A stretch of DNA of 62,352 nucleotides, taken from the IMG/VR virus record IMGVR_UViG_3300020021_000009, positions 1-62,352 of that record. One strand, 5' to 3'. A program made the translations under genes and the position numbers. The first letter of the stretch is position 1, and each line of letters opens with the position of its first letter. The notes under the pieces are model-generated. The model worked only from the letters and a program-made list of their open reading frames with translations, was not told where the DNA came from and made no database searches. The stretch comes from a virus. Lineage: Duplodnaviria; Caudoviricetes. Below are positions 18,512 through 62,352 of the stretch, piece by piece.

Positions 18512-19717
18512 TCACGCTGGGGCGAAGGGCTCGCGCCCGGATGCGGCGGTCCCCGGCAACCTGCCGGAGATGGAGGCGGACGGCCCCCGGCCGGAGGCGT
18601 CCGTGGACGGCTCCCGACCGGAGACCGTCTCCTGGTACGCGGACACCGGGGCCTGGACGGATACGGCATGTGCCGACCCGGAGGCGTGACCGGCCGCGGC
18701 AGTGACCACGATAGCCGTGCCCGGGGTGTAGGCGGTCCCGGCACCGGAGGCGTGACCGGCCACGGCAATGACCACGGCAGCCGTGGCCGGAGCGTAGGCG
18801 GTCCCGGTGCCGGAGGCGCGGCCGGCGGTCCCGGCCAGTGCCCCCACCGGAGCGAAGACCGTTCCGGTGCCGGCGGCCTGACCGACGGTCCCTGCCAGTG
18901 CCGCCCCCGGGGCGTAGGCGGTGCCGGTACCGGCGGCCGTTGCCGGGGACGGAGCGGCCCCGGCACGGGGTGCGTAGGCAGTGCCGGACCCGGCGGCCGT
19001 TGCCGGGGATGGAGCGGTCCCTGTACCGGGTGCGTAGGCGGTGCCGGATCCGGAGGCGGTGCCAGCGGTCCCGACCAGGGCTGCTCCAGGAGCGTAGGCG
19101 GTGCCGGTACCGGCGGCCTGGCCGGCCACCGCAGCGGCCCCGGCACGGGGCGCGTAGGCGGTACCGGACCCGGCGGCCTGACCGGCCACCGCGGTGGTTC
19201 CGCTGGTGACGTCGGCCCCGGTGAAGTCGTCGTAGCGGAGCGCGGACGCGCCGTCGGAACGGATGCCGACGCTGGTGCCGGTCGTCACGACCGTGTTCGT
19301 GACGGAGACCTGCTGTACGCCGTTGACGAATCCCTTGATCGTCGAACCAACGGCCTGGACCTTCGCGACGTCCCCGGAGACGGCCGCCGCAGCGAAGGTG
19401 CCGATGCTGGTGAAAGACCCACCGAGGACGGAGAACAGGGTCCACGTCGTGCCGTCGTTACGCCAGAGGTAGCCCTGGGTGATGCCGCTGTTCCCGCGGC
19501 ACCACACGCCCTGACTCGCTGCCGCCGTGACCGCGATGGTGGCCTGCGCACTGTTGTCGTTGGTCGCCATCGCGGTCACGGCGGTCAGGACAAGACCGGT
19601 GCCGGTCGTCCCCGGCGAGAGCCGATTGGAGGCGATGGTCCAGGTGCCGGACACCTGGGTCCAGCTGGCGCCGACAGACCCGTCCGCCCGGTTGAAGTCG
19701 TCTGTGAACGTGGTCAC
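18512..19717 (-). CDS. virion protein with N-terminal lectin-like beta domain and ~20-aa Ala/Gly/Thr repeats
   Basis: FTDDFNRADG start; about 8 AGxAxGxGTAYAP repeats; GGAGG RBS. Confidence 0.7.
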   Translation of the reverse strand: MTTFTDDFNRADGSVGASWTQVSGTWTIASNRLSPGTTGTGLVLTAVTAMATNDNSAQATIAVTAAASQGVWCRGNSGITQGYLWRNDGTTWTLFSVLGGSFTSIGTFAAAAVSGDVAKVQAVGSTIKGFVNGVQQVSVTNTVVTTGTSVGIRSDGASALRYDDFTGADVTSGTTAVAGQAAGSGTAYAPRAGAAAVAGQAAGTGTAYAPGAALVGTAGTASGSGTAYAPGTGTAPSPATAAGSGTAYAPRAGAAPSPATAAGTGTAYAPGAALAGTVGQAAGTGTVFAPVGALAGTAGRASGTGTAYAPATAAVVIAVAGHASGAGTAYTPGTAIVVTAAAGHASGSAHAVSVQAPVSAYQETVSGREPSTDASGRGPSASISGRLPGTAASGREPFAPA

Positions 19718-30883: not shown

Positions 30884-30897
30884 GGCTTAATCAAATC
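30884..30897. promoter_or_regulatory. recurrent operator-like site
   Basis: GGCTTAATCAAATC overlapping the terminase stop codon. Confidence 0.65.
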
Positions 30898-33100: not shown

Positions 33101-33199
33101 GGGGACAGGATGCCCGACCCCGGACAGCACGACGCCCCGGCAGCGTGGGGACTGCCGGGGCGGGGCCGCGTCATGGCCCCCGCAGCGTAGCGCAGGCGG

Positions 33200-37330: not shown

Positions 37331-37605
37331 AGTGTCGCCACCTTTCCGTTCACTCGGATAGCCCTGGCTACTTTGACGGGGTCCCATTCCGCCAATGAGC
37401 GATCTTTCTTTCCGGAATTGCATGGCCGACAGGCTGGGACCAGGTTGCTTTCATGCTCCCAACCACCACGGGCCAGGGGGATGACATGGTCCACCGTCTC
37501 CGACGGGCCACCGCAGTACACACACTCCCCCGTCGCCCGGATGCCGGTCCACAGACACCGGGCACAGACCGCCCGGACACAGAACCGGCACCCGACAGAG
37601 ATCAT
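37321..37605 (-). CDS. small HNH endonuclease
   Basis: CVYCG...VDHVIPLARGG..SNLVPACRPCNSGK; overlaps both neighbours; lower GC. Confidence 0.8.
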   Translation of the reverse strand: MISVGCRFCVRAVCARCLWTGIRATGECVYCGGPSETVDHVIPLARGGWEHESNLVPACRPCNSGKKDRSLAEWDPVKVARAIRVNGKVATLCV

Positions 37606-39332
37606 TTGGCGCTCACCTCGCCCCACGACCGTCCCGGCTTCGAGACGTCGCAGGTGATCGGAACGCCGCGCCACTCCGTGGTGAACGCGGCCCGGACGAC
37701 TTCCGCGACCTCCGCCGCGTCCTCCTTCGGGACGGACAGCAGGATCTCGTCATGGATGACGGCCCGCAGGTACGGCCGGAAACTGTCCGGCAGCCGCAGC
37801 AGCGCGTCGCACAGCAGGTCCCGCGCCGTGCCCTGGCCCATCAGCGCGGGGGCTTGGGTGTAGGTCCGCTCCGGGTCGCAGCGCATGAGCCGGCCGAAAC
37901 CGTTGTCCAGCAGCTCCCCGGCGTCGGCCAGGGTCCTCACCTCGTCGGTCCACTGGGCCTTGCGCGGGAACATCCGCGCCATGCCGTCGAAGAACGCGTT
38001 CACCAGTTCCGGGTCGTGCCCGTCCGCGATCATCCGCTTGGGGCCCATGCCGTAGTTGGCTCCGTGGCCCAGTGGCTTGGCCGCCTCCCGGAAGGACGCG
38101 TCGCCGAAGATCTGCACCGCCAGTTCCGTGTGCGCGTCCCGTCCGGGCAAAAACAGGTCCATGTAGTTCCGGTCCTGGCAGTGCCCTGCCACGCCCCGCA
38201 TGTCGATCTGGGACAGGTCGCAGGACAGCAGCACGTGGCCCGCCTCCGGCAGGAAGACGTCCCGCTCCACGTGCCTGCCGCCGCGCTTGCCGTAGACCGT
38301 CAGCCCCGGCGCGGTGAACGACCACCGCCCCGACGCCTGCCCCATGTTGATCTTCGGGTGGACCCGGTCCCCCTCCAGGTGGTTGGCCGCCGTCTGGTAG
38401 ACCGTGCGGATCGTGGTCACCACACCCATCAGGCCCAGGACCTCCCGCAGCTCCGGCGGGCACTTCGGGTGGGCGGACAGGCCCTTGAGCACCTCCGCCG
38501 CCGTGGACAGCCCCGTCCGGGTGCGCGGGGGTGACAGGACGCCGTAGCGGGCGTACACGGCCTCCAGCCAGTCCGCCCCCTCCCGGGTGGCCAACGGGGA
38601 CGAGAACGGCTCCCAGACGGGCCTCCTGGCCGCGCCACGGCCCCGCAGGACGTCCCGGCCCAGCGGGAGCCCGTGCACGGCGTGCAGGCGCTCCAGGGCC
38701 TCCGTCTTGCGCGCCTCGCCCTGCGCGATCCGCTCGCGCAGCAGCGGCACGTCCACCCGGAACCCGTTCAGCGTCATCCGCCCGGCAAGGGACGCCAGGC
38801 GGTGCTCCCGGGCCCCGTACTCCGTCATCGGGTAGCGGGCCGCCACGGCGCGCGTCGCCTCCACGTCGGCCCGCAGGTAGGCCGCGTACCGGGAGTCGCC
38901 CACCGGGATGGCGTCGTACCCCCCGAACTCGCGCTTGAGCGATGCCAGGCCGCCGTCCCCGGTGACCTTCCCGGCGACGCCCAGCTTCTGCGCGACGTGG
39001 TCCAGGTCGTACCGGTCCGTGCTGCCGCCCGTGTCCCGGGCACGCGGCGGGTCCGCCAGCCGGGCCAGGATCAGGGTGTCCACCGCCTTGGCGGACAGCG
39101 CCTCCCAGTCGGCCCCGTGGTGGTACGCCAGCGCCAGCAGGTCGAAGCCCAGGACGTTGTGGCCCACCACGGCACCCGCCCGGTCCAGGAAGGCGGTGAG
39201 CACCCCCATGTCGGCGGTCACCCCGACCGGGCCGTCCGGCCCCGCCGCGCCGGCCAGCCGCAGGAAGTCCGGACGGTGAAACAGGTCGTCGGCGGAGCAG
39301 GTCTCCAGGTCGAAGTACGCGGTCGTCACCAT
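37602..39332 (-). CDS. DNA polymerase family A with 3'-5' exonuclease domain
   Basis: FDLET, GHN..FD, YLRAD; SGRWS, DLSQID, R..AK..HGANYG, HDEI. Confidence 0.93.
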   Translation of the reverse strand: MVTTAYFDLETCSADDLFHRPDFLRLAGAAGPDGPVGVTADMGVLTAFLDRAGAVVGHNVLGFDLLALAYHHGADWEALSAKAVDTLILARLADPPRARDTGGSTDRYDLDHVAQKLGVAGKVTGDGGLASLKREFGGYDAIPVGDSRYAAYLRADVEATRAVAARYPMTEYGAREHRLASLAGRMTLNGFRVDVPLLRERIAQGEARKTEALERLHAVHGLPLGRDVLRGRGAARRPVWEPFSSPLATREGADWLEAVYARYGVLSPPRTRTGLSTAAEVLKGLSAHPKCPPELREVLGLMGVVTTIRTVYQTAANHLEGDRVHPKINMGQASGRWSFTAPGLTVYGKRGGRHVERDVFLPEAGHVLLSCDLSQIDMRGVAGHCQDRNYMDLFLPGRDAHTELAVQIFGDASFREAAKPLGHGANYGMGPKRMIADGHDPELVNAFFDGMARMFPRKAQWTDEVRTLADAGELLDNGFGRLMRCDPERTYTQAPALMGQGTARDLLCDALLRLPDSFRPYLRAVIHDEILLSVPKEDAAEVAEVVRAAFTTEWRGVPITCDVSKPGRSWGEVSAK

Positions 39333-39333
39333 G

Positions 39334-41985
39334 TCACGCGCTCCAGTCGAAGTCGTCGGTCCCGGCCGCCGGATCGGCGGGGGCGAACGGGTTGGGCGCT
39401 CCCGTCACGTCGTCGGTCTGCACCGACGGCAGGGCACCAGGCCCCGCGCCTGCGCTTCCGCCAACTGGACCGCCAGCACCTGCCGACCACTGCGGAACCG
39501 GCCCATCGACGTGCACTCCCGCATCCGGTGGTACACGGTCACGGTCGGGACCTGCGGTACGAACACGTTCACCGTCACTCTCCGTATAAGTAGTCAACGG
39601 GTCGGTCCGCGGCTCGGGGACCGGCGCGGGGCCGTCGAACGGGTCCCAGACGGCAGGTGTGGGCGGTGTGGGGAGTGTGGGTTGTTCGCAATCCTGTCTA
39701 TGAGTCGGGACTGTATCCATGATCTTTTTCTCTTCAGTCCCAACCCTCACATAGGGTTGTATGGCACTCACACTAGTCACACTTCGCAGGTCAGAACCCA
39801 CACCAAGATCTCCGGCACCCACACCACTACCCACACTCCGCAGGTCAGAGCCCACACCGTGATCGTTTGACCCCCCCGTCGTGGTGACCGCCACATCCCG
39901 GTTACGGGTGGTTTGTCCGATTTCCTTGTCCTCCCCCGTGCGGGTTGTCACGTTCATGCCGACGTTTTTGTTCCGGTGGGTCAGCCGTACCTCACCCACA
40001 CCCGGCAGCGTCCGCAGCCGCTCTGCGAACTTCGGCCGGGACATGGCTTTGGCCGTACCGTCGTCCTCTGCCCAGGACCGGAACGCCACGTAGAGTGACG
40101 TGATCGTGTCCCCCTGGTCGGCCCCCACCGTCCGTCCCACGGCGTCCGGGTGCACGTCGCACCGGGTGGCCGCCCATCGGGCCACGCGGTCCGAGCGCGT
40201 CTCGAACTCCTGGCGCACGTCCGCGTCCTGCGGCAGGTAGCCGCCACGCCCGTGGAACCCCTGCCAGGCCCCCACCCAGCGGACCAGGATCCCGGGGAGC
40301 TCGCGCATCATGGAGTCCTCGATCGTCGGGTCCTCGCGTCCGGCGAAGCTGAACGGGAACCTGAACGGGGAGATCCGGTTGGTGTACGCGTCGGACGTCT
40401 CGCTGACCGTCGGCGGCTCGTTGGCGGAGAACGCGAACAGTGCCTGGTTGGTGAACCGGAAGGGCAGCCCGTACTTGCGGTCCGCCTCCACGACGTCCTC
40501 GCCGGACATCATCTTGAACAGGGACATGTCCGTCAGGTGCGCGCTGGACAGGTCCGCCGCGATGTTGGCCATCTTCTGATAGAGCGCGGCGGCCATGAAC
40601 CTGTTGTCGGCCAACTGGTGCAGCGACACCCCCGAGATGTTCTCAGGGCCCGCGACAGCACCCAGGATGCGCAGGGCGGTGCTCTTGCCGGAGTGGGAGG
40701 GGCCGAACGCGAACAACGCCTTGGCAGGGGTGCGGGAGGGGTCCAGCATCGTGGACGCCACCTCCTCCAGCTCACGCCCCTGGTCCGGGATCACCTGCTG
40801 GAGCCATGCCTCGTAATGGGGCGCCGTGGCACCAGGGTCCCAGGGCACGGGGATCTGCTGTGCGGACAGGTACTGCGGGCCGTGCGGCAGCAGCTCCCCC
40901 GTGCGCAGGTCCAGCATCCCGTTCGCGCAGTTCAGCACCGGTTCCGTTGCCCGGTCGCCCAGTCGCAGCCCGCGCCGGGTCAGTTCGCCCACGAGGTACT
41001 CCTCCACCGTGGACCGGTGGGCGGGCCGGAAGTCCTCGCCCAGCATGTCGCTGATCCGGTCGATCAGCGGCTCCCGGCCGCGGTCCACGCGGAACGCCCC
41101 GTCGCGGTACAGCGCGATCATTGATCCCTTGCCGAGCGCCGCAGGCTGGCCCTCCAGCACGGCGAGTGCCGTGGTCCGGGCGAGCAGGCCCTTCTCCGTC
41201 ATGTAGGGGGACGCGGCCTTGCGGCCCGGGGGCCGGCCCAGCTTCGCCACGGCCAGCTTCGCCAGCTGCTCCAGGAAGGACGTCCGCCCGCCCGCTGCGC
41301 GCCGTCCCAGGACGTCGTCCAGGCCGTCGGTCGACCTGGCCCCCGCGATCTTGGCGAAGCGCACGCCCTCCGCCCCTTCGAGCTCCAACGCCTCCTGGAG
41401 CCTGACCGCCGCGTCGTGGACGTTGCGGTTGGTGGCCACGTCGCCGTCGAAGACCACCACCACCTCCCGGCCGGCCGCCCAGGACAGGTCCGTGCCCACC
41501 CAGGAGTCACAGCCGGGTACCGCCACCACGCCCCAGGCCACCGGGGCCCACACGGCCGCCGCGATCCCCTGCTTGGTGCCCTCCACGAACAGGTACGGGT
41601 CCTCGCCCCCGGCGGGTGCGCGCAGGTGGTTCAGGAAGGTTCCGCAGCCCTTCGGCAGGACGTACTTGTGCGCCTCCCCCCGGTCGTCCACCACGGGTGT
41701 GTCGGGGCGGAACTGGACCACGGTCCGGTCCTGGTCGCGCCACTCGAACAGCAGCCCGGGCCCGCGGCCGGGCCCCTGCACCCACCAGCGGGCGATCTCG
41801 TCCGGCACGTGGTCCGGATGGGCCACCGCCCGCACGCCGTACTCCAGCGCCTTGTCCACCGGGATGCCCCCGGCCTCCAGCGCCTCCAGTCCGGCCGGGC
41901 TGAACGCGTTCCCCAGCGCGTCCACGGCGCGTGTCTGCGCGTCCTCGGCATGTCCGTTCAGCGACGGGTCCACGTCTGTGGTCAT
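39334..41985 (-). CDS. primase-helicase (TOPRIM-like plus D5/SF3 helicase)
   Basis: FVEGTKQ, VFDGD, DGLDD; LNCANG.LDL, GPSHSGKS, FSANEPP. Confidence 0.9.
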   Translation of the reverse strand: MTTDVDPSLNGHAEDAQTRAVDALGNAFSPAGLEALEAGGIPVDKALEYGVRAVAHPDHVPDEIARWWVQGPGRGPGLLFEWRDQDRTVVQFRPDTPVVDDRGEAHKYVLPKGCGTFLNHLRAPAGGEDPYLFVEGTKQGIAAAVWAPVAWGVVAVPGCDSWVGTDLSWAAGREVVVVFDGDVATNRNVHDAAVRLQEALELEGAEGVRFAKIAGARSTDGLDDVLGRRAAGGRTSFLEQLAKLAVAKLGRPPGRKAASPYMTEKGLLARTTALAVLEGQPAALGKGSMIALYRDGAFRVDRGREPLIDRISDMLGEDFRPAHRSTVEEYLVGELTRRGLRLGDRATEPVLNCANGMLDLRTGELLPHGPQYLSAQQIPVPWDPGATAPHYEAWLQQVIPDQGRELEEVASTMLDPSRTPAKALFAFGPSHSGKSTALRILGAVAGPENISGVSLHQLADNRFMAAALYQKMANIAADLSSAHLTDMSLFKMMSGEDVVEADRKYGLPFRFTNQALFAFSANEPPTVSETSDAYTNRISPFRFPFSFAGREDPTIEDSMMRELPGILVRWVGAWQGFHGRGGYLPQDADVRQEFETRSDRVARWAATRCDVHPDAVGRTVGADQGDTITSLYVAFRSWAEDDGTAKAMSRPKFAERLRTLPGVGEVRLTHRNKNVGMNVTTRTGEDKEIGQTTRNRDVAVTTTGGSNDHGVGSDLRSVGSGVGAGDLGVGSDLRSVTSVSAIQPYVRVGTEEKKIMDTVPTHRQDCEQPTLPTPPTPAVWDPFDGPAPVPEPRTDPLTTYTESDGERVRTAGPDRDRVPPDAGVHVDGPVPQWSAGAGGPVGGSAGAGPGALPSVQTDDVTGAPNPFAPADPAAGTDDFDWSA
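39650..39860. other. putative replication origin within the 3' end of the primase gene
   Basis: 27-bp direct repeats at 39778..39804 and 39832..39858; CCCACAC units with inverted GTGTGGG; AT-richer core. Confidence 0.6.
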
Positions 41986-42256: not shown

Positions 42257-42291
42257 TTGACGTCAGGAGGGATCTCCGATTTAATCAAACC
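42257..42291 (+). promoter_or_regulatory. sigma70-like promoter overlapped by operator-like site at the main divergence point
   Basis: TTGACG-N17-TTTAAT; GATTTAATCAAACC at 42278..42291; ATG at 42293 may be leaderless. Confidence 0.75.
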
Positions 42292-44780: not shown

Positions 44781-44800
44781 ACTGCTTTAATTAAATCAGT
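44781..44800. promoter_or_regulatory. recurrent operator-like site
   Basis: ACTGCTTTAATTAAATCAGT, 1 mismatch from the perfect palindrome. Confidence 0.85.
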
Positions 44801-46688: not shown

Positions 46689-46702
46689 GATTTAATGAAA
46701 TC
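46689..46702. promoter_or_regulatory. recurrent operator-like site
   Basis: GATTTAATGAAATC; upstream CGCCGGAGCCCG is shared with the site at 1006. Confidence 0.8.
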
Positions 46703-50330: not shown

Positions 50331-50344
50331 GATTTAATCAAATC
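50331..50344. promoter_or_regulatory. recurrent operator-like site
   Basis: GATTTAATCAAATC upstream of the wHTH gene. Confidence 0.8.
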
Positions 50345-51205: not shown

Positions 51206-51873
51206 GGACACGGCCCACGATCTCCGTCTGCATCCCCACCCTCCCCGGCCGCGAGACCGAGCTCCGCCGCGCGGTGGCCTCCGTGCTCCGCCAGAAGGAC
51301 TCCGGCTGGGGCCCGCTGGAGATCCTGGTGGAGCGGGACCCGGACCGCAACGGGGCGGCGGCCACCCGCAACAAGCTGCTCGCCCGGTCCCGGGGGGACG
51401 TCATCGCCTGGCTGGACGACGACGACTGGATGGGTGACCGCCACCTGTCCGTCTGCGGCCGGATCCTGCACGACCGCCCGGACGTGGACCTGGTGTACCC
51501 GTCTCCGATCATGGAGCCGCGCCAGGACGACGGCACGTTCCGCCGGGCACCGGTCTGCCCGGCCGCCGTCACCCATCAGGGTGTGTTCCCCACCGAGCCG
51601 TGGGGCCTGCGCTGGTGTGACGAGTTCGCGGCCCACATCCGCCGGCTCGGCTCGTTCATCCCGATGACGCACCTGGTCCGCCGGGACGTGCTGGTGGACG
51701 CGGGCGGGTTCCCGGAGGGGCGCACACTCCCCGACGGCCGGTACCAGGGGGAGGATGAGCGGATGCTGCTCGCCCTGCTGGACCGGGGCGCCGTGTTCGA
51801 ACACGTGGACCGGGCGACGTGGCACTGGTACGTCAACCCGAAGAGCACAGCGGGGAAGGGGCGGGCACAATGA
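51202..51873 (+). CDS. glycosyltransferase family 2
   Basis: ISVCIPT..R, AVASV..Q, GAAATRN, IAWLDDDD, GGF, ED. Confidence 0.88.
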   Translation: MRTRPTISVCIPTLPGRETELRRAVASVLRQKDSGWGPLEILVERDPDRNGAAATRNKLLARSRGDVIAWLDDDDWMGDRHLSVCGRILHDRPDVDLVYPSPIMEPRQDDGTFRRAPVCPAAVTHQGVFPTEPWGLRWCDEFAAHIRRLGSFIPMTHLVRRDVLVDAGGFPEGRTLPDGRYQGEDERMLLALLDRGAVFEHVDRATWHWYVNPKSTAGKGRAQ

Positions 51874-52439
51874 CGGACATGATGCACTGGGGGCCGGACA
51901 CGGACATCGTTCCGTTCCGTGCGGATGACTCGCTGTCCTGGAGGCTGGAGGCGCTGCGGCGGGACGTCGCCCAGACGGCGGACCTGCTGGAGCGGTGGGA
52001 GGCGGGCGAGCTGACCGAGGACACCCCGCCGGTCAGCCGGTCCGGGTACGGGGTGGCTGGACAGAGGACTGAGGAGCCGGACCCCGTGGCGAATCTGTCC
52101 GCCCTCGCGCGGGAGGTCTACCGGTCGGCTGCGTCCGATCCGGACAGCGTTCCCGTCACCCCGGACACGGCCGGCGGACACGGAGTCTTCATCGGTCCAG
52201 GACCGGACACCGGAGCATTGACCTCCTGGCGCAATGAGTGGACGGACGACTGGTACGACGCCCTCCTGTACGGCTACACGGAGGCGGAGGCGCGGACGGC
52301 CGGACTCCGTCCGTCCTGGGAGTGGCGGACGGACACGGTCAACGTCCGGACAGGGGATCCCGGACAGCCGTGGCGGACAACGGCGGACAGTCGGACGGAC
52401 ACGGACAGCGGACACGATGTCCGGGGCGGACACATGTAG
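51870..52439 (+). CDS. hypothetical protein in GGACA-rich DNA
   Basis: ATGA coupling; low-complexity 3' half. Confidence 0.5.
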   Translation: MTDMMHWGPDTDIVPFRADDSLSWRLEALRRDVAQTADLLERWEAGELTEDTPPVSRSGYGVAGQRTEEPDPVANLSALAREVYRSAASDPDSVPVTPDTAGGHGVFIGPGPDTGALTSWRNEWTDDWYDALLYGYTEAEARTAGLRPSWEWRTDTVNVRTGDPGQPWRTTADSRTDTDSGHDVRGGHM

Positions 52440-52450
52440 GGTCGCGGACA

Positions 52451-52486
52451 GAAGGGCGGACACCGGGTCCACGGTGTCCGCCCTTC
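52451..52486 (+). terminator. perfect 15-bp inverted repeat
   Basis: GAAGGGCGGACACCG-N6-CGGTGTCCGCCCTTC. Confidence 0.65.
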
Positions 52487-52617
52487 GCCATGTCCGGATG
52501 TCCGTGTCCGTCCACCTGTCCGTCCACCTGTCCGTCCGCCTGTCCGTCCGCCTGTCCGGATGTCCGTGTCCGTCCGACTGTCCGCTTGACGCTGTCCGCC
52601 GGACATGGGACAGTGGC

Positions 52618-52645
52618 GATCTAATCAAATCGGTTTAATCAAATC
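52618..52645. promoter_or_regulatory. tandem double operator-like site before the spd/tra genes
   Basis: GATCTAATCAAATC directly followed by GGTTTAATCAAATC. Confidence 0.8.
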
Positions 52646-52666
52646 CCCGGACAAGAGGCGGACACG

Positions 52667-53512
52667 ATGGACGCGGACAGCGGACAGAGCGGACAGGACA
52701 CCCGGACACCGGACATGCCCGTCTGGGTGTCCTGGTTCACGGACGGCGGACGCCCGGTCGTGGCCGTACTGGTCATGATCATGTGCGCACCCGGGGAGCA
52801 CCACCTGGCTGCCATGGCCGGCTGGGAGGACTGGCTGGCCTGGGGCATGCCCGGCTGCCTGGTCATCTACACGGGCATCGCCGCGGTCGTGGCCACCAAG
52901 CGGGCCAAGGGCACGCCCGGCAAGCGCACGGCCGTGGTGGGGGCGATCCTGTCCCTGCTGCTGGCCATGAGCGCGCAACCGATCAGCCACCTGTTCGTGA
53001 CCGGGATCTGGCACGGCGACCCCTGGCCCCTGGTCGTGGTCGTCTCCTGTATCCCGCCCATGGTCCTCGGACACCTGCTCCACCTGGCCGCCGGGGGATC
53101 TGTCCGGTCCGTCCGGCGGACAGTGGCGGACACCGGACAGGCTGACGTCCCGGACAGTGCGGACGCACCGCTGCGGACAGTGGCGGACACGGACGGACAC
53201 CGGGCCGTGCGGACGGACATCGGACGGACGGACACCTGGATCATCGTGCCGGACACGGACACGGACACGGACACGGACACGGATACGGTGTCCGGACACT
53301 TTGCCGAACCGGTCGTCGTGTCCGTCCCGGTCCGCCGTTCCGTTGTCCGGCAGATGGCGTCCGGCTCCATCCCGTCCGTCGTCAAGGACATCCTCACGGA
53401 CAGCCCGGACGCCACGAACGCCGATGTCCGGGACATGGTCCTGAACCGGCTCGGACCGGACACCAAGACAGACAGCATTAGCAAGGCGATCCGCCGCGTG
53501 CGCGCGGCCTAA
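52667..53512 (+). CDS. Spd-like (DUF2637-type) multi-TM membrane protein with C-terminal helical domain
   Basis: About four TM segments ending IPPMVLGHLLHL, low-complexity linker, basic C-terminus SISKAIRRVR; first gene of the tra operon. Confidence 0.7.
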   Translation: MDADSGQSGQDTRTPDMPVWVSWFTDGGRPVVAVLVMIMCAPGEHHLAAMAGWEDWLAWGMPGCLVIYTGIAAVVATKRAKGTPGKRTAVVGAILSLLLAMSAQPISHLFVTGIWHGDPWPLVVVVSCIPPMVLGHLLHLAAGGSVRSVRRTVADTGQADVPDSADAPLRTVADTDGHRAVRTDIGRTDTWIIVPDTDTDTDTDTDTVSGHFAEPVVVSVPVRRSVVRQMASGSIPSVVKDILTDSPDATNADVRDMVLNRLGPDTKTDSISKAIRRVRAA

Positions 53513-53526
53513 GGAGGGACACGGAC

Positions 53527-54003
53527 ATGAGCACTACCCAGGTTGGAACGTCCGCGAGCAACGCCCAACGGGAGCCCGCACGACCGTCCCACAAGCCGAC
53601 CGTCGGACGGACGGGGACGGGATCGGACAGGATCGACGCCCTGGTCCGGGCGCTGGACGATATTCAGATCGAGGACCAGCACGACCTCCACGCGATCCTG
53701 GAGGCGTTCCGCAAGCTCGGTCACCGCCTCGCGATGGAGTCCATGCTGACCGGGTCCGAACTGGAGGCCGGTCTCAAGCAGGCGGCCCGCGGCGGCAGCG
53801 TCTTCGGGACCGTCGGGTTCGGCACCCACCGGAAGATCAGGCGCACGCTCAAGGCGCTGCGGACCATGGCCGACGGATTCGCGGGGGCGAGCGCCAGCGC
53901 GGTCGTCGCGTGGCGCGCGTTCGAGAAGGATTTCGCCGAAGACCTGGCACCCACCCGCACCAGGCCCGCTCCCCGCAAGGGGTTCCGGATCAACCCGAAC
54001 TGA
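53527..54003 (+). CDS. TraA-like plasmid transfer protein
   Basis: Small helical protein directly before traB; AWRAFEKDFAEDL...GFRI end resembles Streptomyces plasmid TraA. Confidence 0.6.
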   Translation: MSTTQVGTSASNAQREPARPSHKPTVGRTGTGSDRIDALVRALDDIQIEDQHDLHAILEAFRKLGHRLAMESMLTGSELEAGLKQAARGGSVFGTVGFGTHRKIRRTLKALRTMADGFAGASASAVVAWRAFEKDFAEDLAPTRTRPAPRKGFRINPN

Positions 54004-54043
54004 CCCCTGACCAGCGAAGACGACCCGAAAGGAGGCGGACACC

Positions 54044-56074
54044 GTGAACGCCAAGACACCGAAGACACCGAAGGTCCCGACCGTGGACCTGGGCGACCGG
54101 GCCAAGCAGGTGCTCGCCCCCTGGGGGCTGGCCGTGGCCGCGATGCCCGTCTCCGTGGTGCTGCATGCGGCCTGGGGCGGGGACGCGGTCATGCAGGAGC
54201 TGATGGCGGGCGGCTCCGTCCTGCTCACCGGGGCCGTGCACACCACGTGGTCCCGGCGCCACGAGCACACCAGGCTGCTGGCCACGGTGTACACAGGCCT
54301 GGTCACGGGCTGGATCTCGGTCGGGACGGCGGTCAACCCGCTGTCCTCCGGGATGGTCAAGGCGTGGGAGTTCGGCGGGGCGCTGGCGTCCATCGTCTGG
54401 AACATCGCCTCTGCTGCGCACCGTGCGCCCCACGAGACCGACACGGCCTCCGGGAAGGCCGGCGACCTGGACCTGTCCACGGTGGGCGGGGCCCTGACCG
54501 GTGCCGTGGCCGACAAGGTACGGCGCAAGACCGGCCGACTGGAGGCAGACGTCCAGCTCAAGCCGGGTGAGACGGCGGAGGGGGTGGAGGGCGAGCGTGG
54601 CCGGATCGCGTCCCTGGCCAAGGTGGGTGCCGACCAGGTGACCGTCACCCCCAACCGCAAGCGGGCCGACCGGGTCATGCTCTCGTTCTCCGCCAGCCCC
54701 GATCAGCGCAAGGCCGTGCGCGGGTTCGTCCAGGGCGAGCTGGGCCGCTCCGTCGCGGACGCCCCGCTGGTCATCGGGCAGCGGGCGGACGGCTCCGACC
54801 TGGCCATATGGATGGTCGGCAACGACGACATGGACGACCCCCGGGCACTGGGCCACACACTCTGCACGGGCATGACCGGGTCCGGCAAGACCGAGACGAT
54901 CAACACACTCATCCTGCGGATCCGGGAGACCTGCGACATGGTCCCCGTGGTGGCCGACCCGGCGAAGTTCGAGCAGTCGTTCGGCACCATCGCGGACGCC
55001 TTGGAGATCGCGGCCAAGGGGCGGCAGCAGACGAACGCGCTGGTCCGGAACCTGCCCGCCGCCATCACCTACCGCTCGGAACTGCTCGGCACGCTGGAGC
55101 GGTCCGACGGGCTGTCCGGCGGCTACTCGCAATGGGTCCCCGAGTGCTGGACGCTGCACCGCATCCCGGCCGTGTTCGTCGATATCGAAGAGGCGACCGA
55201 CGTCCTGTCCACGGTCGATGACGAGTTCGACGACGCCATTCGCAAGGCACGGTCGGTGGGAATCCACCTGTGTGCCTCGCTCCAGACGGCGATCCACTCG
55301 AACATGGAGCGCAAGACCCGCGGACAGTTCTCCAACACGCTGTGCCACGGCTGCACCGAGGACCACGACGCGAAGTTCTCCCTGAACGCCAACACCCTGG
55401 CGGCCGGCGCGGACCCGACCAAGTGGCAGAACTCCTACCCCGGCAGCCTGTACGGGGAGTTGTTGGGGGTGCCGCCGGAGGAGTGGTCCATGGACGCCCG
55501 CGCCTACGGCGTGGAGCGCTCCGAGAAGCGGGCCGCGGTGGACACCTCGCGTCCGTTCTGGGCCCGCCTGGACCCGGGGACGGCCATGCGCCTGGGGGCG
55601 GGGATCGCGATGCCGGACGCCAAGGTGGTAGCCGGGCTGACTGCGGTCACCCGGGACCCGGCCCCGTCCCAGGAGGAGGTGTCCGTGTACGTGGACGACG
55701 ACCGGGAACCGGCGTTCGACCCGACCAGGGTTTCGGCAGAAGGAGGGGACATCGACGTGACCACACCCATCCCGGCCCCGGACCGCGACGGCCCGCGGGT
55801 CGTCCTGGCACCCGCGCGCACGGAACCGGTCGACTTCGAGGGGGCGTACCGGAAGATCAAACTGCGGCTGGCGAAGCTGGAGCAGGGCGGCCAGGACCAC
55901 ATCACGTACCAGGACATCGGGGACATTCAGGCGGAGTCCGGTGTCAGCCGGGGGTGGATGTACAAGGCGATGCGGCGACTGGAGGAGAACGGCCGCCTGG
56001 TCGCGGTGTCGGGGGCGGGAAAACCCCCGTACCGGATCGTCGCGAGGGAGCGGAACGGCACCGCTGTCGGTTAG
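54044..56074 (+). CDS. traB: TraB FtsK/SpoIIIE-family conjugative DNA translocase
   Basis: N-terminal TMs, GMTGSGKT, VVADPAK, FVDIEEA, ARSVGI..SLQ, C-terminal wHTH SRGWMYKAMRRL. Confidence 0.9.
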   Translation: MNAKTPKTPKVPTVDLGDRAKQVLAPWGLAVAAMPVSVVLHAAWGGDAVMQELMAGGSVLLTGAVHTTWSRRHEHTRLLATVYTGLVTGWISVGTAVNPLSSGMVKAWEFGGALASIVWNIASAAHRAPHETDTASGKAGDLDLSTVGGALTGAVADKVRRKTGRLEADVQLKPGETAEGVEGERGRIASLAKVGADQVTVTPNRKRADRVMLSFSASPDQRKAVRGFVQGELGRSVADAPLVIGQRADGSDLAIWMVGNDDMDDPRALGHTLCTGMTGSGKTETINTLILRIRETCDMVPVVADPAKFEQSFGTIADALEIAAKGRQQTNALVRNLPAAITYRSELLGTLERSDGLSGGYSQWVPECWTLHRIPAVFVDIEEATDVLSTVDDEFDDAIRKARSVGIHLCASLQTAIHSNMERKTRGQFSNTLCHGCTEDHDAKFSLNANTLAAGADPTKWQNSYPGSLYGELLGVPPEEWSMDARAYGVERSEKRAAVDTSRPFWARLDPGTAMRLGAGIAMPDAKVVAGLTAVTRDPAPSQEEVSVYVDDDREPAFDPTRVSAEGGDIDVTTPIPAPDRDGPRVVLAPARTEPVDFEGAYRKIKLRLAKLEQGGQDHITYQDIGDIQAESGVSRGWMYKAMRRLEENGRLVAVSGAGKPPYRIVARERNGTAVG

Positions 56075-56083
56075 CAGCGCCTG

Positions 56084-56246
56084 TGTCACGGGGCGTCACA
56101 GCCCCGTGTCACGGACGGTACCAACCGGTACAGATCAGCTGTAACAGGGACGCTGTCACGGGGCAGTGTCACGGCATGTCACGGGGCTCCGACCTTAGGG
56201 AGTCCTCGCGTGACGTCCCGCCCTGGACACGGGAACGATGTCACGG
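56084..56246 (+). repeat. putative clt locus: six direct TGTCACGG 8-mers
   Basis: Copies at 56084, 56107, 56154, 56167, 56177 and 56239 plus variants, directly after the traB stop. Confidence 0.8.
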
Positions 56247-56256
56247 AGGACTGATC

Positions 56257-56451
56257 ATGAGGAACACGATCGCGGCGGTGCACGCGGTGGCCATCCTTGT
56301 CTGGGTGCTGGTCGTCGGTACGGGACGGCTCACGGTGCCCGGCTTCCTGCTCTGGCTCGCGCTCTGCGCGGCCGGGGACCAGGCCCTGGTCTGGGCGCTC
56401 TGGCTCGGCTCCGGCCGCAAGGGTCCGTCCCCGAACCGGCGCTGGCGCTGA
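56257..56451 (+). CDS. small membrane protein (Spd-like)
   Basis: GGAGG RBS; hydrophobic; downstream of traB. Confidence 0.6.
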   Translation: MRNTIAAVHAVAILVWVLVVGTGRLTVPGFLLWLALCAAGDQALVWALWLGSGRKGPSPNRRWR

Positions 56452-56558
56452 TGGCTGGCCGCCGCCCCTCGTTCCTGGGGCTGTGGTCCGGCCGGCTGAT
56501 CGGCTGGATCGGTTTCGGGGACGCGGCACGCATCCTGTTCGAGCACCTGACGCACTGA
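56451..56558 (+). CDS. small hydrophobic peptide
   Basis: TGATG coupling. Confidence 0.45.
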   Translation: MAGRRPSFLGLWSGRLIGWIGFGDAARILFEHLTH

Positions 56559-56571
56559 GAGAGGACGCACC

Positions 56572-57244: not shown

Positions 57245-57921
57245 TCGACGTGCTGGTCCCGTCCAGGGGCCGTCCGGAGATGCTGGTCCGGTCCCTGCAC
57301 TCCCTGTTCACCACGGCAGCGGACCCGCGCAGCGTCCGTTGCCACGTGGCCGTGGACAACGACGACCGGGCCACGGAGGACGTGGTCCGGTACCTGGCAG
57401 GGAGCCTGGAACCGGGGGCGGTCACCCTGACCGTCTCCGAGCGGCACGGCTACGCAGGACTGCACCACTACTACAACACCCTGGCCATGCGCGGCAGCGG
57501 TGACTGGCTGCTGCTGTGGAACGACGACGCGTTCATGCAGACCACCACCTGGGACATGGCCCTGGACGTCCACATGCCTGCGGGCGTCCTGGTGGCCGAC
57601 CTCCAGTCGGCCCACTCCCCCGGTCTGTGCTGCTTCCCGGCCGTGCGCCGGGAGGCGGTGGAGGCGCTGGGGTTCTTCGCCACGGACAACCCGCACTGCG
57701 ACACGCTGTGGCAGGACATCGGCCGGGCCACGGGCACGATCGCGGCAGTCCCGGTCCACGTGCTCCACGACCGTCCCGACCTGACCGGCCGGGCACCCGA
57801 CGCCACCTGGACCGAGGGCCGCGCCGGTACCCACGGCGCGGACTACGGGGGCTCCCCCCACCAGGCCCAGGTACTGCACGCCATAGCGACCATCAGGAAG
57901 GCATTCCCGTGCGCGCTCTGA
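57241..57921 (+). CDS. glycosyltransferase (GT-A fold)
   Basis: IDVLVPSRGRP, VDNDD, WNDD, CFP, CD. Confidence 0.8.
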   Translation: MIDVLVPSRGRPEMLVRSLHSLFTTAADPRSVRCHVAVDNDDRATEDVVRYLAGSLEPGAVTLTVSERHGYAGLHHYYNTLAMRGSGDWLLLWNDDAFMQTTTWDMALDVHMPAGVLVADLQSAHSPGLCCFPAVRREAVEALGFFATDNPHCDTLWQDIGRATGTIAAVPVHVLHDRPDLTGRAPDATWTEGRAGTHGADYGGSPHQAQVLHAIATIRKAFPCAL

Positions 57922-58826
57922 TCTTCGGCGGTTCCGGATTCGTCGGCCGCCATCTGGCCGCGACCCTGACCGGGGGCGAGCACCGGGTCAGGGTGTTCGA
58001 CAGGGCCGACCACCCGGGGGACGACGTCCGGGACCCGGACGCGGTCACCGACGTGGTGCGCCGGTTCGAGCCGGACCAGGTCTACCACCTGGCCGCGATC
58101 TCCTGGCCCGGCGAGTCCCTGTCCGACCCCCGGCACACGATGGACGTCAACGTGACCGGGACGCTCAACGTCCTGGAGGCGGTCCGGGTCACCGGCTCCC
58201 GCGCGCGCGTGCTGATCGCGGGCACCTCCGAGGAGTACGGCTACGGGGAGCGGCCCGGATCGAACGAGATCACGGAGGGGACGGCCTGCGCACCGACCAC
58301 GGTCTACGGGGTGTCCAAGCTGGCGGCCACCACCCTGGGCCAGGTCTACGCCCAGCGGTACGGCATGCACGTCGTGAGTACCCGGGCCTGGAACCACACC
58401 GGTCCCGGCCGGCAGGCGGTCAACGCAGAGTCCGCGTTCGCCTGCCGCATCGTCGCGGTGGAGCGGGGCGAGGCGGACAGTGTTCCGCACGGGGACCTGT
58501 CCGCCGTCCGGAACTGGACCGACGCCCGGGACGTGGTCCGCGCGTACCGGCGGCTGCTGGACCCGAAGGGGGAGGCGACCCCGGGGATCTACAACGTGTG
58601 CTCGGAGGAGAACCTGCCCCTGTCCGAAATCATGGACCTGCTGTTGGAGCAGTCCTCCGTCGGTCCTGCCGACCTCCGGCTGGACCCCGCCCTGGTTTTC
58701 CCGTCCCCGTGGGGTATGTGGCCGCAGCCGTCTGCGGAGAAACTGCGGGAGATCACCGGATGGACCCCGAAGATCCCGCTGGACCAGACCCTGTCCGAAC
58801 TGCTCACCTACTGGAGGAACCGATGA
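57909..58826 (+). CDS. GDP-mannose 4,6-dehydratase / RMD-like extended SDR
   Basis: GGSGFVG, YHLAA, TSEEYG, YGVSK, NHTGP, DARDVVRAY. Confidence 0.88.
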   Translation: MRALIFGGSGFVGRHLAATLTGGEHRVRVFDRADHPGDDVRDPDAVTDVVRRFEPDQVYHLAAISWPGESLSDPRHTMDVNVTGTLNVLEAVRVTGSRARVLIAGTSEEYGYGERPGSNEITEGTACAPTTVYGVSKLAATTLGQVYAQRYGMHVVSTRAWNHTGPGRQAVNAESAFACRIVAVERGEADSVPHGDLSAVRNWTDARDVVRAYRRLLDPKGEATPGIYNVCSEENLPLSEIMDLLLEQSSVGPADLRLDPALVFPSPWGMWPQPSAEKLREITGWTPKIPLDQTLSELLTYWRNR

Positions 58827-60046
58827 TCTGCCGGAGCTGCGGGAGTGGGTCCCTGACCCGGGTCCTGGACCTGGGACTGCACCGCCTTCCCGACTTCCCG
58901 ACACCGCAGGACTACGCGGCCGACACCGGGCAGACCGACGTCCACCCGTTGTCCCTGGTGATCTGCGCCGGCTGCACCCTGGTCCAGTTGGAGCAGACGA
59001 CACCGCGGGGGCTGCTCTACCACGACCGCTACGGGTTCCGGTCGGGGACCAACGAGGCAGTCCGCGCGGACCTGACCGACGTCGTGAACTACGCCCGGAC
59101 CGTGGTCCCGGACGCGAGAACCTGGCTGGACATCGCGTGCAACGACGGCACGCTGCTGTCCAACGTGCCGCCCACAGTGTGGCGGGTCGGGGTGGACCCC
59201 CTGTCCCAGCTCGCCCCGCAGGCGCGCCGGTTCGCGGACCGGGTCGTGTCCGACTACTTCTCCCCGCGGCTGCGGCACGTCGGCAACACGGCGTTCGACG
59301 TGGTCACGTCGGTGTCCATGTTCTACGACCTGGACGACCCGAACGCGTTCGCGGCCGGGGTGGCGGAGGTGCTCGCCCCCGGCGGGGCATGGGTGGTCCA
59401 GCAGAACTACGCGCTGGACATGGTCCGGTCACTGGCGGTGGACAACATCTGCCACGAGCACGTGACGTACTGGTCCGTGACCAGCATGGTGCCGCTGCTG
59501 GCCGCCCACGGGCTGGAGGTCAACGACGTCACATACAGCACGGTCAACGGGGGCTGCTTCCGGACCCTGGTCTCCCACCGGGGGGAGCGGCCGGTCAGCG
59601 CGTCCGTGGCCGACGCGCTGGAGCGGGAGGCGGCGGCAGGGCTGTGGAACCCGGTGACGTGGGACACCTTCGGGGAGCGGGTCCGGGCGGAGCTCGGCAA
59701 GCTCCAGCGGTTCCTGTCCGCGGTCACCGACCGCGGCAAGACCGTGGACCTGTACGGGGCGAGCACCCGGGGCGGGACCTTCCTCCAGATGATCGGAGCA
59801 GGCCCGTCGGTCCTGCGACAGGCGGTGGAGCGGAGCCCGGACAAGGTGGGGAAGGTGATGGCGGCGACCGGCCTGCCGATCGTCGGCGAGGACGTGATGC
59901 GGGCGGACCCGCCGGACTACCTGTTGGTGTCGCCGTGGTTCTTCCGGGACGTGTTCCTGGTCCGCGAGCGCGCGTACCTGGAGGCGGGCGGGACCATGGT
60001 GTTCCCACTGCCGCAGTTCGACATGGTCACAGGGTCCCCGTCATGA
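58823..60046 (+). CDS. NDP-sugar C-methyltransferase
   Basis: CRSCG..LDLG..C..CTLVQL zinc domain, DIACNDG, HEH, YGASTRG, PDYLLV.PW. Confidence 0.88.
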   Translation: MICRSCGSGSLTRVLDLGLHRLPDFPTPQDYAADTGQTDVHPLSLVICAGCTLVQLEQTTPRGLLYHDRYGFRSGTNEAVRADLTDVVNYARTVVPDARTWLDIACNDGTLLSNVPPTVWRVGVDPLSQLAPQARRFADRVVSDYFSPRLRHVGNTAFDVVTSVSMFYDLDDPNAFAAGVAEVLAPGGAWVVQQNYALDMVRSLAVDNICHEHVTYWSVTSMVPLLAAHGLEVNDVTYSTVNGGCFRTLVSHRGERPVSASVADALEREAAAGLWNPVTWDTFGERVRAELGKLQRFLSAVTDRGKTVDLYGASTRGGTFLQMIGAGPSVLRQAVERSPDKVGKVMAATGLPIVGEDVMRADPPDYLLVSPWFFRDVFLVRERAYLEAGGTMVFPLPQFDMVTGSPS

Positions 60047-60630
60047 GCCTGCGTCCCGGCGTCACGGTCGTCGTCCCGGTTCACCCGCCCCGGTTCCACA
60101 CCACGCTGGACCGGGCACTGCGCAGCGTGTGGGAGCAGCAGGCACCGCCGGCCGCGGTCGTCGTGGAGGTCGACCACTCGCATGCCGGGGCGGCCGTGAC
60201 CCGGAACCGGGGCCTGGCAGCAGTGCAGACGGAGTGGGTGGCGTTCCTGGACAGCGACGACCAGCTGAGACCGGCACACCTGCGGCGGTTGACCGAGCAC
60301 CAGCGGGACACGGGGGCTGACCTGGTCTACCCATGGTTCGACGTCGTGAACGGGTGGGACCCGTTCCCGGACCGGTTCGGGGTGCCGTTCGACCCGGCGG
60401 TGCTGCGGGAGCGGAACACGGTCCCGGTCACGGTGCTGGCGCGCACGTCCCTGATCAGGGACGTGGCCGGGGGCTTCCGCCCGAAGGGCCCGCCGGACAA
60501 CCCCTGCGACGACTGGGGCTGCTGGGATGAAATGGTCACAGCGGGGGCACAGTTCAGCCACCTGCCGGAGCGGACCTGGCTCTGGTGGTGGGCCACGGGC
60601 AACACGTCCGGACGCGGTGACGTCTGGTAG
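60043..60630 (+). CDS. glycosyltransferase family 2
   Basis: VTVVVP, ALRSV..Q, GAAVTRNRGL, VAFLDSDD, GGF, DDW. Confidence 0.88.
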   Translation: MSLRPGVTVVVPVHPPRFHTTLDRALRSVWEQQAPPAAVVVEVDHSHAGAAVTRNRGLAAVQTEWVAFLDSDDQLRPAHLRRLTEHQRDTGADLVYPWFDVVNGWDPFPDRFGVPFDPAVLRERNTVPVTVLARTSLIRDVAGGFRPKGPPDNPCDDWGCWDEMVTAGAQFSHLPERTWLWWWATGNTSGRGDVW

Positions 60631-60834: not shown

Positions 60835-60869
60835 TTGACACCGGGGCCGGATAGCGATTTAATTAAATC
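60835..60869 (+). promoter_or_regulatory. sigma70-like promoter overlapped by operator-like site
   Basis: TTGACA-N17-TTTAAT; GATTTAATTAAATC at 60856..60869. Confidence 0.8.
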
Positions 60870-61652: not shown

Positions 61653-61744
61653 TGAGCCGGCACCGCCGCACCGTCTTCGGACAGCCCGTGTTCTGGGCCC
61701 TGTTCGCGGCCGTGATGGCCGTCCTCATCCTGATCAACCTCTGA
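61652..61744 (+). CDS. 30-aa membrane peptide
   Basis: TGATG coupling; VFWALFAAVMAVLILINL. Confidence 0.5.
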   Translation: MSRHRRTVFGQPVFWALFAAVMAVLILINL

Positions 61745-61759
61745 CCCGGAAGGATCATA

Positions 61760-62352
61760 GTGACCACCATCGACCTGACCGCCCTCACCCTGAAGCCCGG
61801 CAACCACCACGACCGCGCCGAAGGCGTCTGCATGCTGGAGGCCGTCGCCTGGTTCGCCGGCGAGGACCACTCCGACCACCCGGCCTGCACGTCCCCCACG
61901 CTGGCCGGCTACGGGCGCCGCCTGAACGACGTGCTGCCGGACGACTCGCGGCAGTTGCTGGTGCCGATGGTGCCGCGCATGGTCGGCACGGCCGGTGACG
62001 GCCTGGACGAGGCGCGCGGGTATCTGGCGCTGGACTGGCTGGTGCGCACGTACACCCCGGCGTGGCTGGATCTGGCTGGGCTGACGGAGCGTGCGGCCGA
62101 GCTGCGGGCGCTCCGCAGGATCGTGGACCTGTCGGCCGCGCAGGCTGCCGGCCCGGTGGCGCTGGCGTCGCGGAAGGACGCGGCCGCCGCTCGGGACGCC
62201 GCTTGGGACGCCGCTGGGGACGCCGCTCGGGCCGCCGCTGGGGACGCCGCTCGGGCCGCCGCTGGGGACGCCGCTTGGGCCGCCGCTGGGGCCGCCGCTG
62301 GGGACGCCGCTGGGGACGCCGCTTGGGACGCCGCTCGGGCCGAGCGGCGTCC
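61760..62352 (+). CDS. 5' part of (D/A)AA(W/R/G) tetrapeptide-repeat protein
   Basis: GAAGGA RBS; GVCMLEAVAWFAGEDHSDHPAC N-terminal domain; open to the window end. Confidence 0.8.
   Translation, partial: MTTIDLTALTLKPGNHHDRAEGVCMLEAVAWFAGEDHSDHPACTSPTLAGYGRRLNDVLPDDSRQLLVPMVPRMVGTAGDGLDEARGYLALDWLVRTYTPAWLDLAGLTERAAELRALRRIVDLSAAQAAGPVALASRKDAAAARDAAWDAAGDAARAAAGDAARAAAGDAAWAAAGAAAGDAAGDAAWDAARAERR
62183..62340 (+). repeat. 12-bp tandem repeat G(A/C)CGCCGCT(T/G/C)GG
   Basis: About 13 consecutive units. Confidence 0.95.

Follow-up and report, generated by a model that had tools for sequence, protein, structure and literature searches.

Plasmid centromeres such as parC/ParR, parH/ParG and tubC/TubR consist of short words arrayed beside the gene of their cognate binding protein, with rapidly diverging specificities that define incompatibility groups, and repeat-array systems of this kind need a partner NTPase: ParA, ParM or TubZ. 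Other proteins tie DNA to the membrane: p16.7 of phage phi29 is a membrane-anchored replication organiser with one transmembrane (TM) helix and no sequence specificity, and Noc of Bacillus is a ParB relative with an amphipathic helix and many dispersed specific sites. Here we describe a locus with likenesses to both groups in the IMG/VR virus record IMGVR_UViG_3300020021_000009, all 62,352 bp of which were analyzed (hereafter the window). At this locus, the gene of a putative membrane-anchored DNA-binding protein (hereafter the TM gene and TM protein) lies within a ~1.65-kb field of GGACA words. A preliminary description had proposed that the protein binds the repeats in and around its own gene as a self-tethering or partition device, an interpretation that our analysis supports in part. 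We favor a cognate, sequence-specific membrane tether as the explanation, at a probability of roughly 0.55; the narrower prediction that the tail of the protein binds the word appears likely from the pattern among relatives.

Like the repeat-array centromeres, this locus has a short-word array beside the gene of a putative binder. It differs in that the binder would be membrane-anchored and most sites lie inside coding DNA, and a search for ParA, which did not extend to ParM and TubZ, gave none in the window and none in four of four near-complete relatives. Of the features of a ParABS system, neither a partner ParA NTPase nor a centromere-binding protein of the ParB or ribbon-helix-helix fold was found; the array next to the putative binder's gene would be a candidate centromere. 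As with p16.7 and Noc, DNA would be tied to the membrane via a small helical DNA-binding domain; the locus is set apart from p16.7 by that protein's single helix and unspecific binding, and from Noc by the latter's kinship with ParB and its amphipathic helix.

SpdB2 of plasmid pSVH1 has four TM segments, binds dsDNA without specificity and has homologues in actinophages (PMC4447253). The TM protein likewise has four TM helices and is encoded in a tra/spd-type region, and the protein at the SpdB position of pJV1 also ends in a helix-turn-helix (HTH)-like segment; however, the binding of SpdB2 is reported as non-specific, whereas here we infer a specific word and a dedicated field. Comparison of the TM protein with the SpdB-position proteins of pSN22 and pJV1 revealed no similarity in sequence (BLASTP E values of 8.9 and 0.05, hhalign probability of 2.6%), the pSVH1 SpdB2 not being among the proteins compared. 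The dsDNA translocase TraB and its locus clt, made of 8-bp TraB recognition sequence (TRS) repeats, also combine short repeated words by tra genes with a membrane-bound protein whose small helical domain reads them (PMC4447253 and PMC3583192). Known clt loci have ~4–9 direct repeats in 50–175 bp after or near tra, whereas the field has its sites in both orientations over 1.65 kb upstream and overlaps two genes; this element has a separate clt-like array, apart from the field. A literature search, which left most subscription papers outside its range, returned no description of a membrane protein within its own cognate site field.

A field of GGACA words around a membrane-protein gene

The genes and arrays at the locus are, in order, a GT2 glycosyltransferase gene, an orphan open reading frame (ORF-A), a hairpin and a reverse-oriented array, two copies of TAATCAAATC, the TM gene, traA, traB, an array of TGTCACGG, and small hydrophobic ORFs. 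Positions 51870–53530 contain 52 GGACA and 22 TGTCC words, or 74 pentamers in ~1.65 kb, compared with 3.3 expected from the base composition of the region and ~7.7 from the rate in the window outside it (2.33 per 500 bp). The preliminary description had counted about 70 by hand, mostly CGGACA, and had expected only a handful from composition; both statements hold, and 64 of the 74 pentamers are preceded by C. The windowed word count that it proposed as a check also singles out the field, with 22, 21 and 25 pentamers in the 500-bp bins at 52000, 52500 and 53000 and at most seven in every other bin. Across the whole window CGGACA occurs 187 times, compared with 69.7±9.3 in dinucleotide shuffles, and none of 100 shuffles reached this number. 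Sites are mainly forward up to 52458, reverse in 12 of 12 cases at 52475–52593, and forward again from 52601, reproducing the orientation flips described earlier (with a reverse block at 52475–52597), together with ten reverse sites scattered elsewhere.

The density of sites varies along the field. Per 100 bp there are 3.7 in ORF-A, 7.9 in the intergenic gap, 9.3 in the N-tail codons of the TM gene, 0.56 in its TM-domain codons, 7.0 in its linker and 3.4 in its C-terminal domain, with 0.49 in traB. The scarcity in the TM-coding part noted previously is thus evident against the 7–9 of the gap, N-tail and linker, and the non-coding gap is denser than every coding segment but the short N-tail. 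We resampled synonymous codons using the element's own codon usage, with traB as a control. The 21 sites observed in ORF-A compare with 5.9±1.8 after resampling and the 33 in the TM gene with 10.7±2.5; traB had 10 observed and 7.7 after resampling. This excess outlasts synonymous resampling and the sites occupy all three reading frames and both strands, supporting the earlier claim that selection acts on the DNA rather than on the peptides. Tandem Repeats Finder (TRF) detected a 12-bp unit repeated 6.5 times in the gap (score 100) and CGGACA repeated 6.5 times in the linker, while most of the field is non-tandem.

The TM gene (52667–53512, + strand) encodes 281 amino acids. Its product, a membrane-anchored putative DNA-binding protein, was delimited by hydropathy, 165 homologues, and an AlphaFold2 (AF2) model built from a 21-sequence alignment (mean predicted local distance difference test score, pLDDT, of 66). 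It consists of an N-tail (residues 1–18), TM helices at 19–50, 55–78, 86–112 and 120–143, a disordered linker (~144–230, with pLDDT below 50 for residues 156–230), and a C-terminal domain (C-domain, 235–280). Structure prediction of the C-terminus, another check proposed at the outset, gave a confident domain of three helices (235–245, 251–262 and 268–280; pLDDT 92–97), and 268–280, which includes D269 and S272, is the candidate recognition helix. The TM helices, the linker and the helical C-terminal fold of the preliminary description therefore stand; the net charge of the whole C-domain is just +1, and basic character is limited to the last helix. In the alignment of homologues the membrane domain is highly conserved, the linker is unalignable, and the C-domain is kept among full-length relatives. 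Invariant polar residues lie inside the membrane helices (E44, Q104, H108, H136 and H139; residues 19–143, 52667–53095), which suggests that this domain, shared with relatives whose tails come without a DNA field, does more than anchor the protein.

Searched against 1.84 billion representatives, a C-domain profile found only 123 proteins at E ≤ 0.001, and where the match was a single stretch, as in most rows, it lay at the C-terminus. The TM protein matched no Pfam, NCBIfam or PHROG family, and the C-domain has no Pfam family. Its weak Foldseek neighbors are DNA-binding HTH domains (Pax6-DNA, Lrp/AsnC and FOXO4; E 2–4). A feature search of the ESM Atlas gave look-alikes, including HARE-HTH clusters, that fell below the tool's bar and provided no usable match. 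UniRef labels one relative (P0076) as a DUF2637 protein; the Pfam DUF2637 hidden Markov model did not match even at E ≤ 5.

Upstream of the TM gene, ORF-A (51870–52439, + strand, 189 amino acids) forms the first part of the field. Its ATG overlaps the stop of the GT2 gene, and it has a coding-type frame plot with a G+C content at third codon positions of 0.85; it belongs to no Pfam, NCBIfam or PHROG family and has no tblastn homologue in loci L001–L056. Just past its stop, two inverted CGGACAC sites form a hairpin (52441–52499, + strand) of −44.7 kcal/mol (z = −7.2), matched by none of 200 shuffles, which bears out the hairpin previously placed at 52451; it is terminator-like but has no T-run. 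The reverse-oriented sites are held by a non-coding tandem array (52505–52598, − strand), the 12-bp unit TGTCCGTCCGCC detected by TRF.

Enriched words and protein tails among relatives

The preliminary description had proposed asking whether homologous genes each carry their own enriched word co-varying with the C-terminal helix. Loci coding for proteins with a related membrane domain were collected from viral (53), metagenomic (40) and genomic (35) sequences; 131 with a TM hit gave 105 unique complete genes. For each gene, the most enriched word in and around it, minus the TM-coding part, was determined by comparison with the rest of the locus, and tails were divided into window-type C-domains (class 1), HTH_17 domains (class 2) and tails of the type DPRC…IRG.LR (class 3). 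Across the 105 relatives the outcome was positive.

Among class 1 genes with background sequence, the top local 5-mer was GGACA, CGGAC or GACAC in 20 of 20 (log-likelihood −35 to −133). Seven further rows were class 1 by alignment but left unclassified by the regular expression, and GGACA or CGGAC was the top word in five of them (−24 to −69) but not in L080 and L090. This core word is kept in relatives whose linkers cannot be aligned. Class 3, which includes gp30 of phage mu1/6, had no field in 21 of 21 genes and no word better than −14, providing an internal negative control for the enrichment method. HTH_17 tails had weaker fields of other words that varied with the recognition-helix subtype: ST[VI]RTWK tails went with CGTCTC, GTCTCA or AGACGC in 14 of 16 rows, and STVGTW tails with words containing GAGC or GCTC in five of six. 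Xis/BldC-like HTH_17 proteins polymerize on direct repeats, and the short-word arrays of the HTH_17-tailed relatives fit cooperative multi-site binders of this kind; the likeness applies to class 2 and not to the C-domain of the window.

Two loci (L003 and L030) share the TraB synteny of the window but have an HTH_17 tail, and their genes carry GTCTCA/CGTCTC rather than GGACA. Conversely, L002, L005 and L006 have TGTCAGA in common after traB, yet their upstream fields differ (TCCGGA versus RGGACA). The field thus follows the tail of the membrane protein and not TraB. This joint change of word and tail suggests a membrane anchor that recognizes the DNA of its own element. Related cases are phage Success, whose gp8 (L135 4480–5268; TM plus HTH) has CTCTCA 11 times on the gene and twice elsewhere in 9.3 kb, and a soluble protein: plasmid pS1D4-14.2 encodes an Endonuclease VII protein (L001 4722–5312) with the same kind of C-terminal helix (…DSLKKAIARTR), and its linker DNA and that of the preceding membrane-protein gene (L001 4400–5400) are packed with CGAAAG(C)/CGAGAG in both orientations. 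In the cultured Streptomyces phages Success (gp8) and Attoomi (gp48, L136), the gene with the same membrane domain and a C-terminal HTH is part of the lysogeny module and is preceded by an HTH gene.

A finer correspondence was seen in 27 genes with the window-type tail between the residue at D269, in the first turn of helix 3, and the base preceding GGACA (position −1). With Asp at this position C was the commonest −1 base in 9 of 9 genes (47–91%), and with Asn purines made up 65–98% in 12 of 12. Where the Asn was followed by Tyr three positions on, the −1 base was a pyrimidine in six of six, C being commonest, although three of these six have near-identical tails. The window (KTDSISKAI; C 89%) and L026 (KTNSISKAI; C 27%, purines 65%) differ almost solely in that residue. 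The −1 preference was equal in sites upstream of the TM domain and in linker sites, whereas the rest of each locus was near uniform. The classes are intermingled on a TM-domain tree, where the Asp class requires at least six changes. Contacts of Asp with cytosine and of Asn with purines are common in protein–DNA recognition, making helix 3 a credible recognition helix.

A proposed membrane tether and its alternatives

In the reading that we favor, an integral membrane protein with four TM helices would recognize (C)GGACA through the last helix of a cytoplasmic three-helix C-terminal domain. The 64–74 copies of the word lie in the DNA around its gene, in the orphan upstream ORF, the non-coding gap and the codons of the disordered N-tail and linker, where protein constraint is weak. 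With so many sites around the gene, many membrane-anchored copies could coat the 1.65-kb patch in cis, giving a strong tether that would fasten the phage-plasmid to the membrane where the TM-traA-traB operon begins. The outcome may be membrane-coupled maintenance or segregation without ParAB or an integrase, presentation of the DNA to TraB for spreading, or both. Membrane-coupled maintenance and/or hand-over to TraB is the most likely role, judging from two features: the TM gene heads the tra operon, and the window and four of four relatives lack ParA, ParB over cut-off, and recombinases.

The preliminary description had reported finding neither ParAB nor an integrase, and this was borne out. 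The window has no ParA (PF13614; PF01656 was not run on it), no ParB (PF02195), and no tyrosine integrase or serine recombinase. In four class 1 relatives that are 92–100% complete, all with a terminase, ParA was absent by both PF13614 and PF01656 (0/4 each; ParM and TubZ were not searched for), no integrase or serine recombinase exceeded its family cut-off, and no ParB (PF02195) did, with one hit below cut-off in G004. By contrast, pS1D4-14.2, which has a different membrane protein and the CGAAAG-type array, has both ParA and a tyrosine integrase. The further idea that field and protein substitute for ParAB and integrase thus receives modest support.

Several observations weigh against a tether. 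Binding and tethering are both inferred, and the role is deduced from gene context and from the absence of ParAB in five records, which is a hint rather than a test. CGGACA is ~1.8-fold over the dinucleotide expectation outside the field too (123 versus ~68), and the spacing of sites shows only the 3-bp coding periodicity, with no 10–11-bp helical phasing. The complete relative G001 (the record of L004) has a second CGGACA hotspot at 32300–33100 (24 per kb, −1 C in 18 of 27), inside the gene of a 715-amino acid protein with LPDTP…DMS peptide repeats, of which it may be a by-product. For the C-domain, sequence searches of the PDB with two profiles found nothing or compositional matches to designed repeat proteins, and Foldseek found no PDB match at E ≤ 0.001. 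The lack of a field in class 3 genes indicates that the conserved membrane domain serves some purpose that does not depend on one. As to the co-variation, field and C-domain are physically linked and may be inherited or recombined as one block, tandem duplication of the kind detected by TRF can homogenize sites, and some rows are not independent (L018, L086 and L090); linkage and homogenization could both inflate the correspondence.

A broader form of the tether hypothesis is possible but doubtful. It would make the locus one of a class of self-encoded membrane centromeres, not described before and widespread in Streptomyces phages, phage-plasmids and integrated elements, each with an integral membrane protein that carries an exchangeable, sequence-specific DNA-binding tail and a field of 50–75 sites in and around its own gene, largely in disordered-segment codons. 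Helix and word would co-evolve into incompatibility or exclusion groups, and the device would replace ParABS and integration in hyphae and spores.

Three less probable readings are alternatives to the tether. In the first, the field would be an iteron-like origin or a replication-anchoring site, and the membrane protein would hold replicating DNA. Phage phi29 p16.7 holds replicating DNA at the membrane and the lambda origin lies within gene O, and here too the site array is within the linker codons of its own putative binder. The TM gene of Success and Attoomi comes after one annotated as an HTH DNA-binding protein, the N-terminus of which we take, by eye, to be Rep/DnaD-like, and co-evolving specificities are typical of incompatibility determinants. 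However, the family-A DNA polymerase (PolA, 37.6–39.3 kb), the D5 primase (39.3–42.0 kb) and a separate cluster of CCCACACC (six copies, 39656–40002) lie ~12 kb from the field, the sole AT-rich stretch of the field is a motif that recurs at some ten operon starts, and no initiator family was found among the adjoining genes. We give a replication site a small chance.

The second reading, of similarly small probability, is transcriptional control: a Kor-like repressor or roadblock that would coat its own promoter, its gene and the upstream terminator region, keep a potentially toxic traB silent, and replace the GntR-type TraR that precedes traA-traB in classical plasmids. The TM gene sits directly upstream of traA-traB, where pSN22 and pJV1 have a GntR regulator; none was seen beside the operon of the window, and sites flank the promoter-like motif at 52622–52645. 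In other plasmids traB and traR form a kil-kor pair (PMC4447253), which also speaks for this view. On the other side, ~70 sites over 1.65 kb are far above what an operator needs, and repression needs no membrane anchor. Relatives with no traB in the surrounding 5 kb have fields as well: a TraB hit is missing from 38 of 56 loci, several of them with fields of the HTH_17 type.

Third, and with a slim chance, the resident membrane protein could capture incoming DNA of the same specificity and block its establishment, acting in self-specific entry or superinfection exclusion. This would suit the location of the gene in the lysogeny module of the temperate phages Success and Attoomi, near integrase and HTH genes, and a fast diversification of specificity like that of immunity and exclusion systems, but it leaves the ~70 self-carried target sites unexplained unless they also have a function in cis.

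Two further readings of the field are unlikely. The field could be a functionless by-product of tandem duplication and low-complexity peptides (TDTDTD, RTVAD) in a fast-evolving linker, as its two TRF units and the location of the second G001 hotspot in a peptide-repeat gene would allow. We find this very improbable given the density of the non-coding gap, the spread of sites over all frames and both strands, the loss of two thirds of sites on synonymous resampling, the persistence of the core word where linkers are unalignable, and a flanking base that follows the helix residue. Least probable is that the field is clt, its words being read by the C-terminal winged helix of TraB: it adjoins traA-traB, clt loci consist of short direct repeats (PMC4447253 and PMC3583192) and TGTCC is similar to TGTCA, the core of the array downstream, but that array takes the classical post-traB position with six exact TGTCACGG in one orientation, TGTCA-type arrays are found there in 9 of 20 unique TraB loci, the three loci that share TGTCAGA have different upstream fields, other-word fields occur without traB nearby (within 5 kb) where a clt word should co-vary with TraB, and in place of about 4–9 non-coding direct repeats at or after the tra 3′ end the field has 74 copies, ten times more than known clt loci, upstream, across two genes and in both orientations.

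If the pairing of tail and word behind the proposed tether is real, it would show how a large group of Streptomyces phage-plasmids and prophage-like elements may persist in a multinucleoid, septum-poor mycelium without ParAB or integration. The membrane machinery that surrounds the dsDNA translocase TraB, itself poorly understood, would gain a component with sequence specificity. For a small three-helix domain that is as yet unclassified, the relatives would offer a natural series in which protein and DNA co-vary (Asp with C, Asn with purine, Asn plus Tyr with pyrimidine), and the field would clearly illustrate how DNA information of a regulatory or structural kind can be written into the codons of disordered segments. 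Cognate tail–word pairs could also serve as orthogonal DNA-to-membrane tethers in actinomycetes.

The transfer module and the rest of the element

Between the field's reverse-oriented array and the TM gene lie two AT-rich copies of TAATCAAATC (52622–52645, + strand), likely the promoter or operator of the TM-traA-traB operon. This partly palindromic motif, TAATCAAATC / GATTTAATTAAATC, has 23 matches in the window with up to two mismatches, compared with 2.7±1.6 expected, mostly at the starts of gene clusters. Besides 52622–52645, sites lie at 1009–1022, 4663–4676, 24103, 30888, 42278–42291, 44784–44797, 46689–46702, 50331–50344 and 60856–60869. The motif is probably the element's own promoter or operator; scans of the sequence for consensus sigma-70 promoters and for terminators returned no sites. 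In the pS1D4-14.2 locus (L001), GATTTAAGGAAATCA stands ahead of three operons.

The TraA-like gene (53527–54003, + strand, 158 amino acids) was assigned through NF041213 plasmid_TraA (E 5.6e-05, 23.3 bits, below the 80-bit cut-off). The next gene (54044–56074, + strand, 676 amino acids) encodes a TraB-like conjugative dsDNA translocase of the FtsK/SpoIIIE type (NF041214 plasmid_TraB, E 2.9e-98), whose 330 bits are below the 800-bit equivalog cut-off; tblastn matched it to 51 plasmid records, at 40% identity at best. The order traA-traB is that of pSN22 and pJV1. In the gap after traB lies the clt-like array (56084–56246), which has six exact copies of TGTCACGG, all on the + strand, of eight in the window. 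It resembles the clt of pWTY27, an experimentally bound locus of four TGACACC repeats adjoining the tra 3′ end (PMC3583192), and is the classical clt candidate of this element, a candidate TraB recognition locus distinct from the GGACA field. Small hydrophobic ORFs follow directly (56258–56560), in the position of the spd genes of classical plasmids, and are also present in L002 and L003.

The record as a whole is ~70% G+C. Its genes include those of a large terminase into which an intein-like Hint domain is inserted (30896–33130, − strand), PolA and the D5-type primase (37602–41985, − strand), a helicase and an exonuclease, in addition to the TraA-like and TraB-like proteins of the Streptomyces conjugation type (53527–56074, + strand). 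The closest relatives of its TraB are from Streptomyces plasmids, headed by the 98.8-kb linear pS1D4-14.2, which also has a terminase; further relatives are on viral contigs of 70–93 kb. Together, the phage genes, the transfer proteins and these relatives point to a phage-plasmid-like genome with a conjugative dsDNA translocase, a phage-plasmid of Streptomyces. A near-identity DNA search with 51800–56100 and a tblastn search with the TM protein found no match in the plasmid collection, nor did tblastn with TraB in the phage collection, both collections possibly lacking records close to the window.

The preliminary description had spoken of a circle. The record is classed as linear with a CheckV completeness of 76%. 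Both of its ends (1–600 and 61730–62352) lie within one and the same tandem repeat of 15 bp, whose minus strand codes for peptides of the PSGVP type. The assembly was thus probably broken inside a repeat of a circular or permuted molecule, and the ends are compatible with a circle broken in this way.

The transfer module is flanked by two GT2 glycosyltransferase genes and a gene of the GDP-mannose-dehydratase/epimerase type (51211–51873, 57516–58826 and 58480–60630), and the GT2 gene that precedes the field is kept in 16 of 18 TraB-bearing loci. Elsewhere in the window, 6 of the 10 copies of CCCACACC fall in a 350-bp stretch inside the D5 primase gene, in both orientations, and form a candidate origin or iteron cluster. 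Further local clusters of words occur at 18600–19300, with ACCGCCTA(C) six times and CCGGCAC ten times near 18.7 kb.

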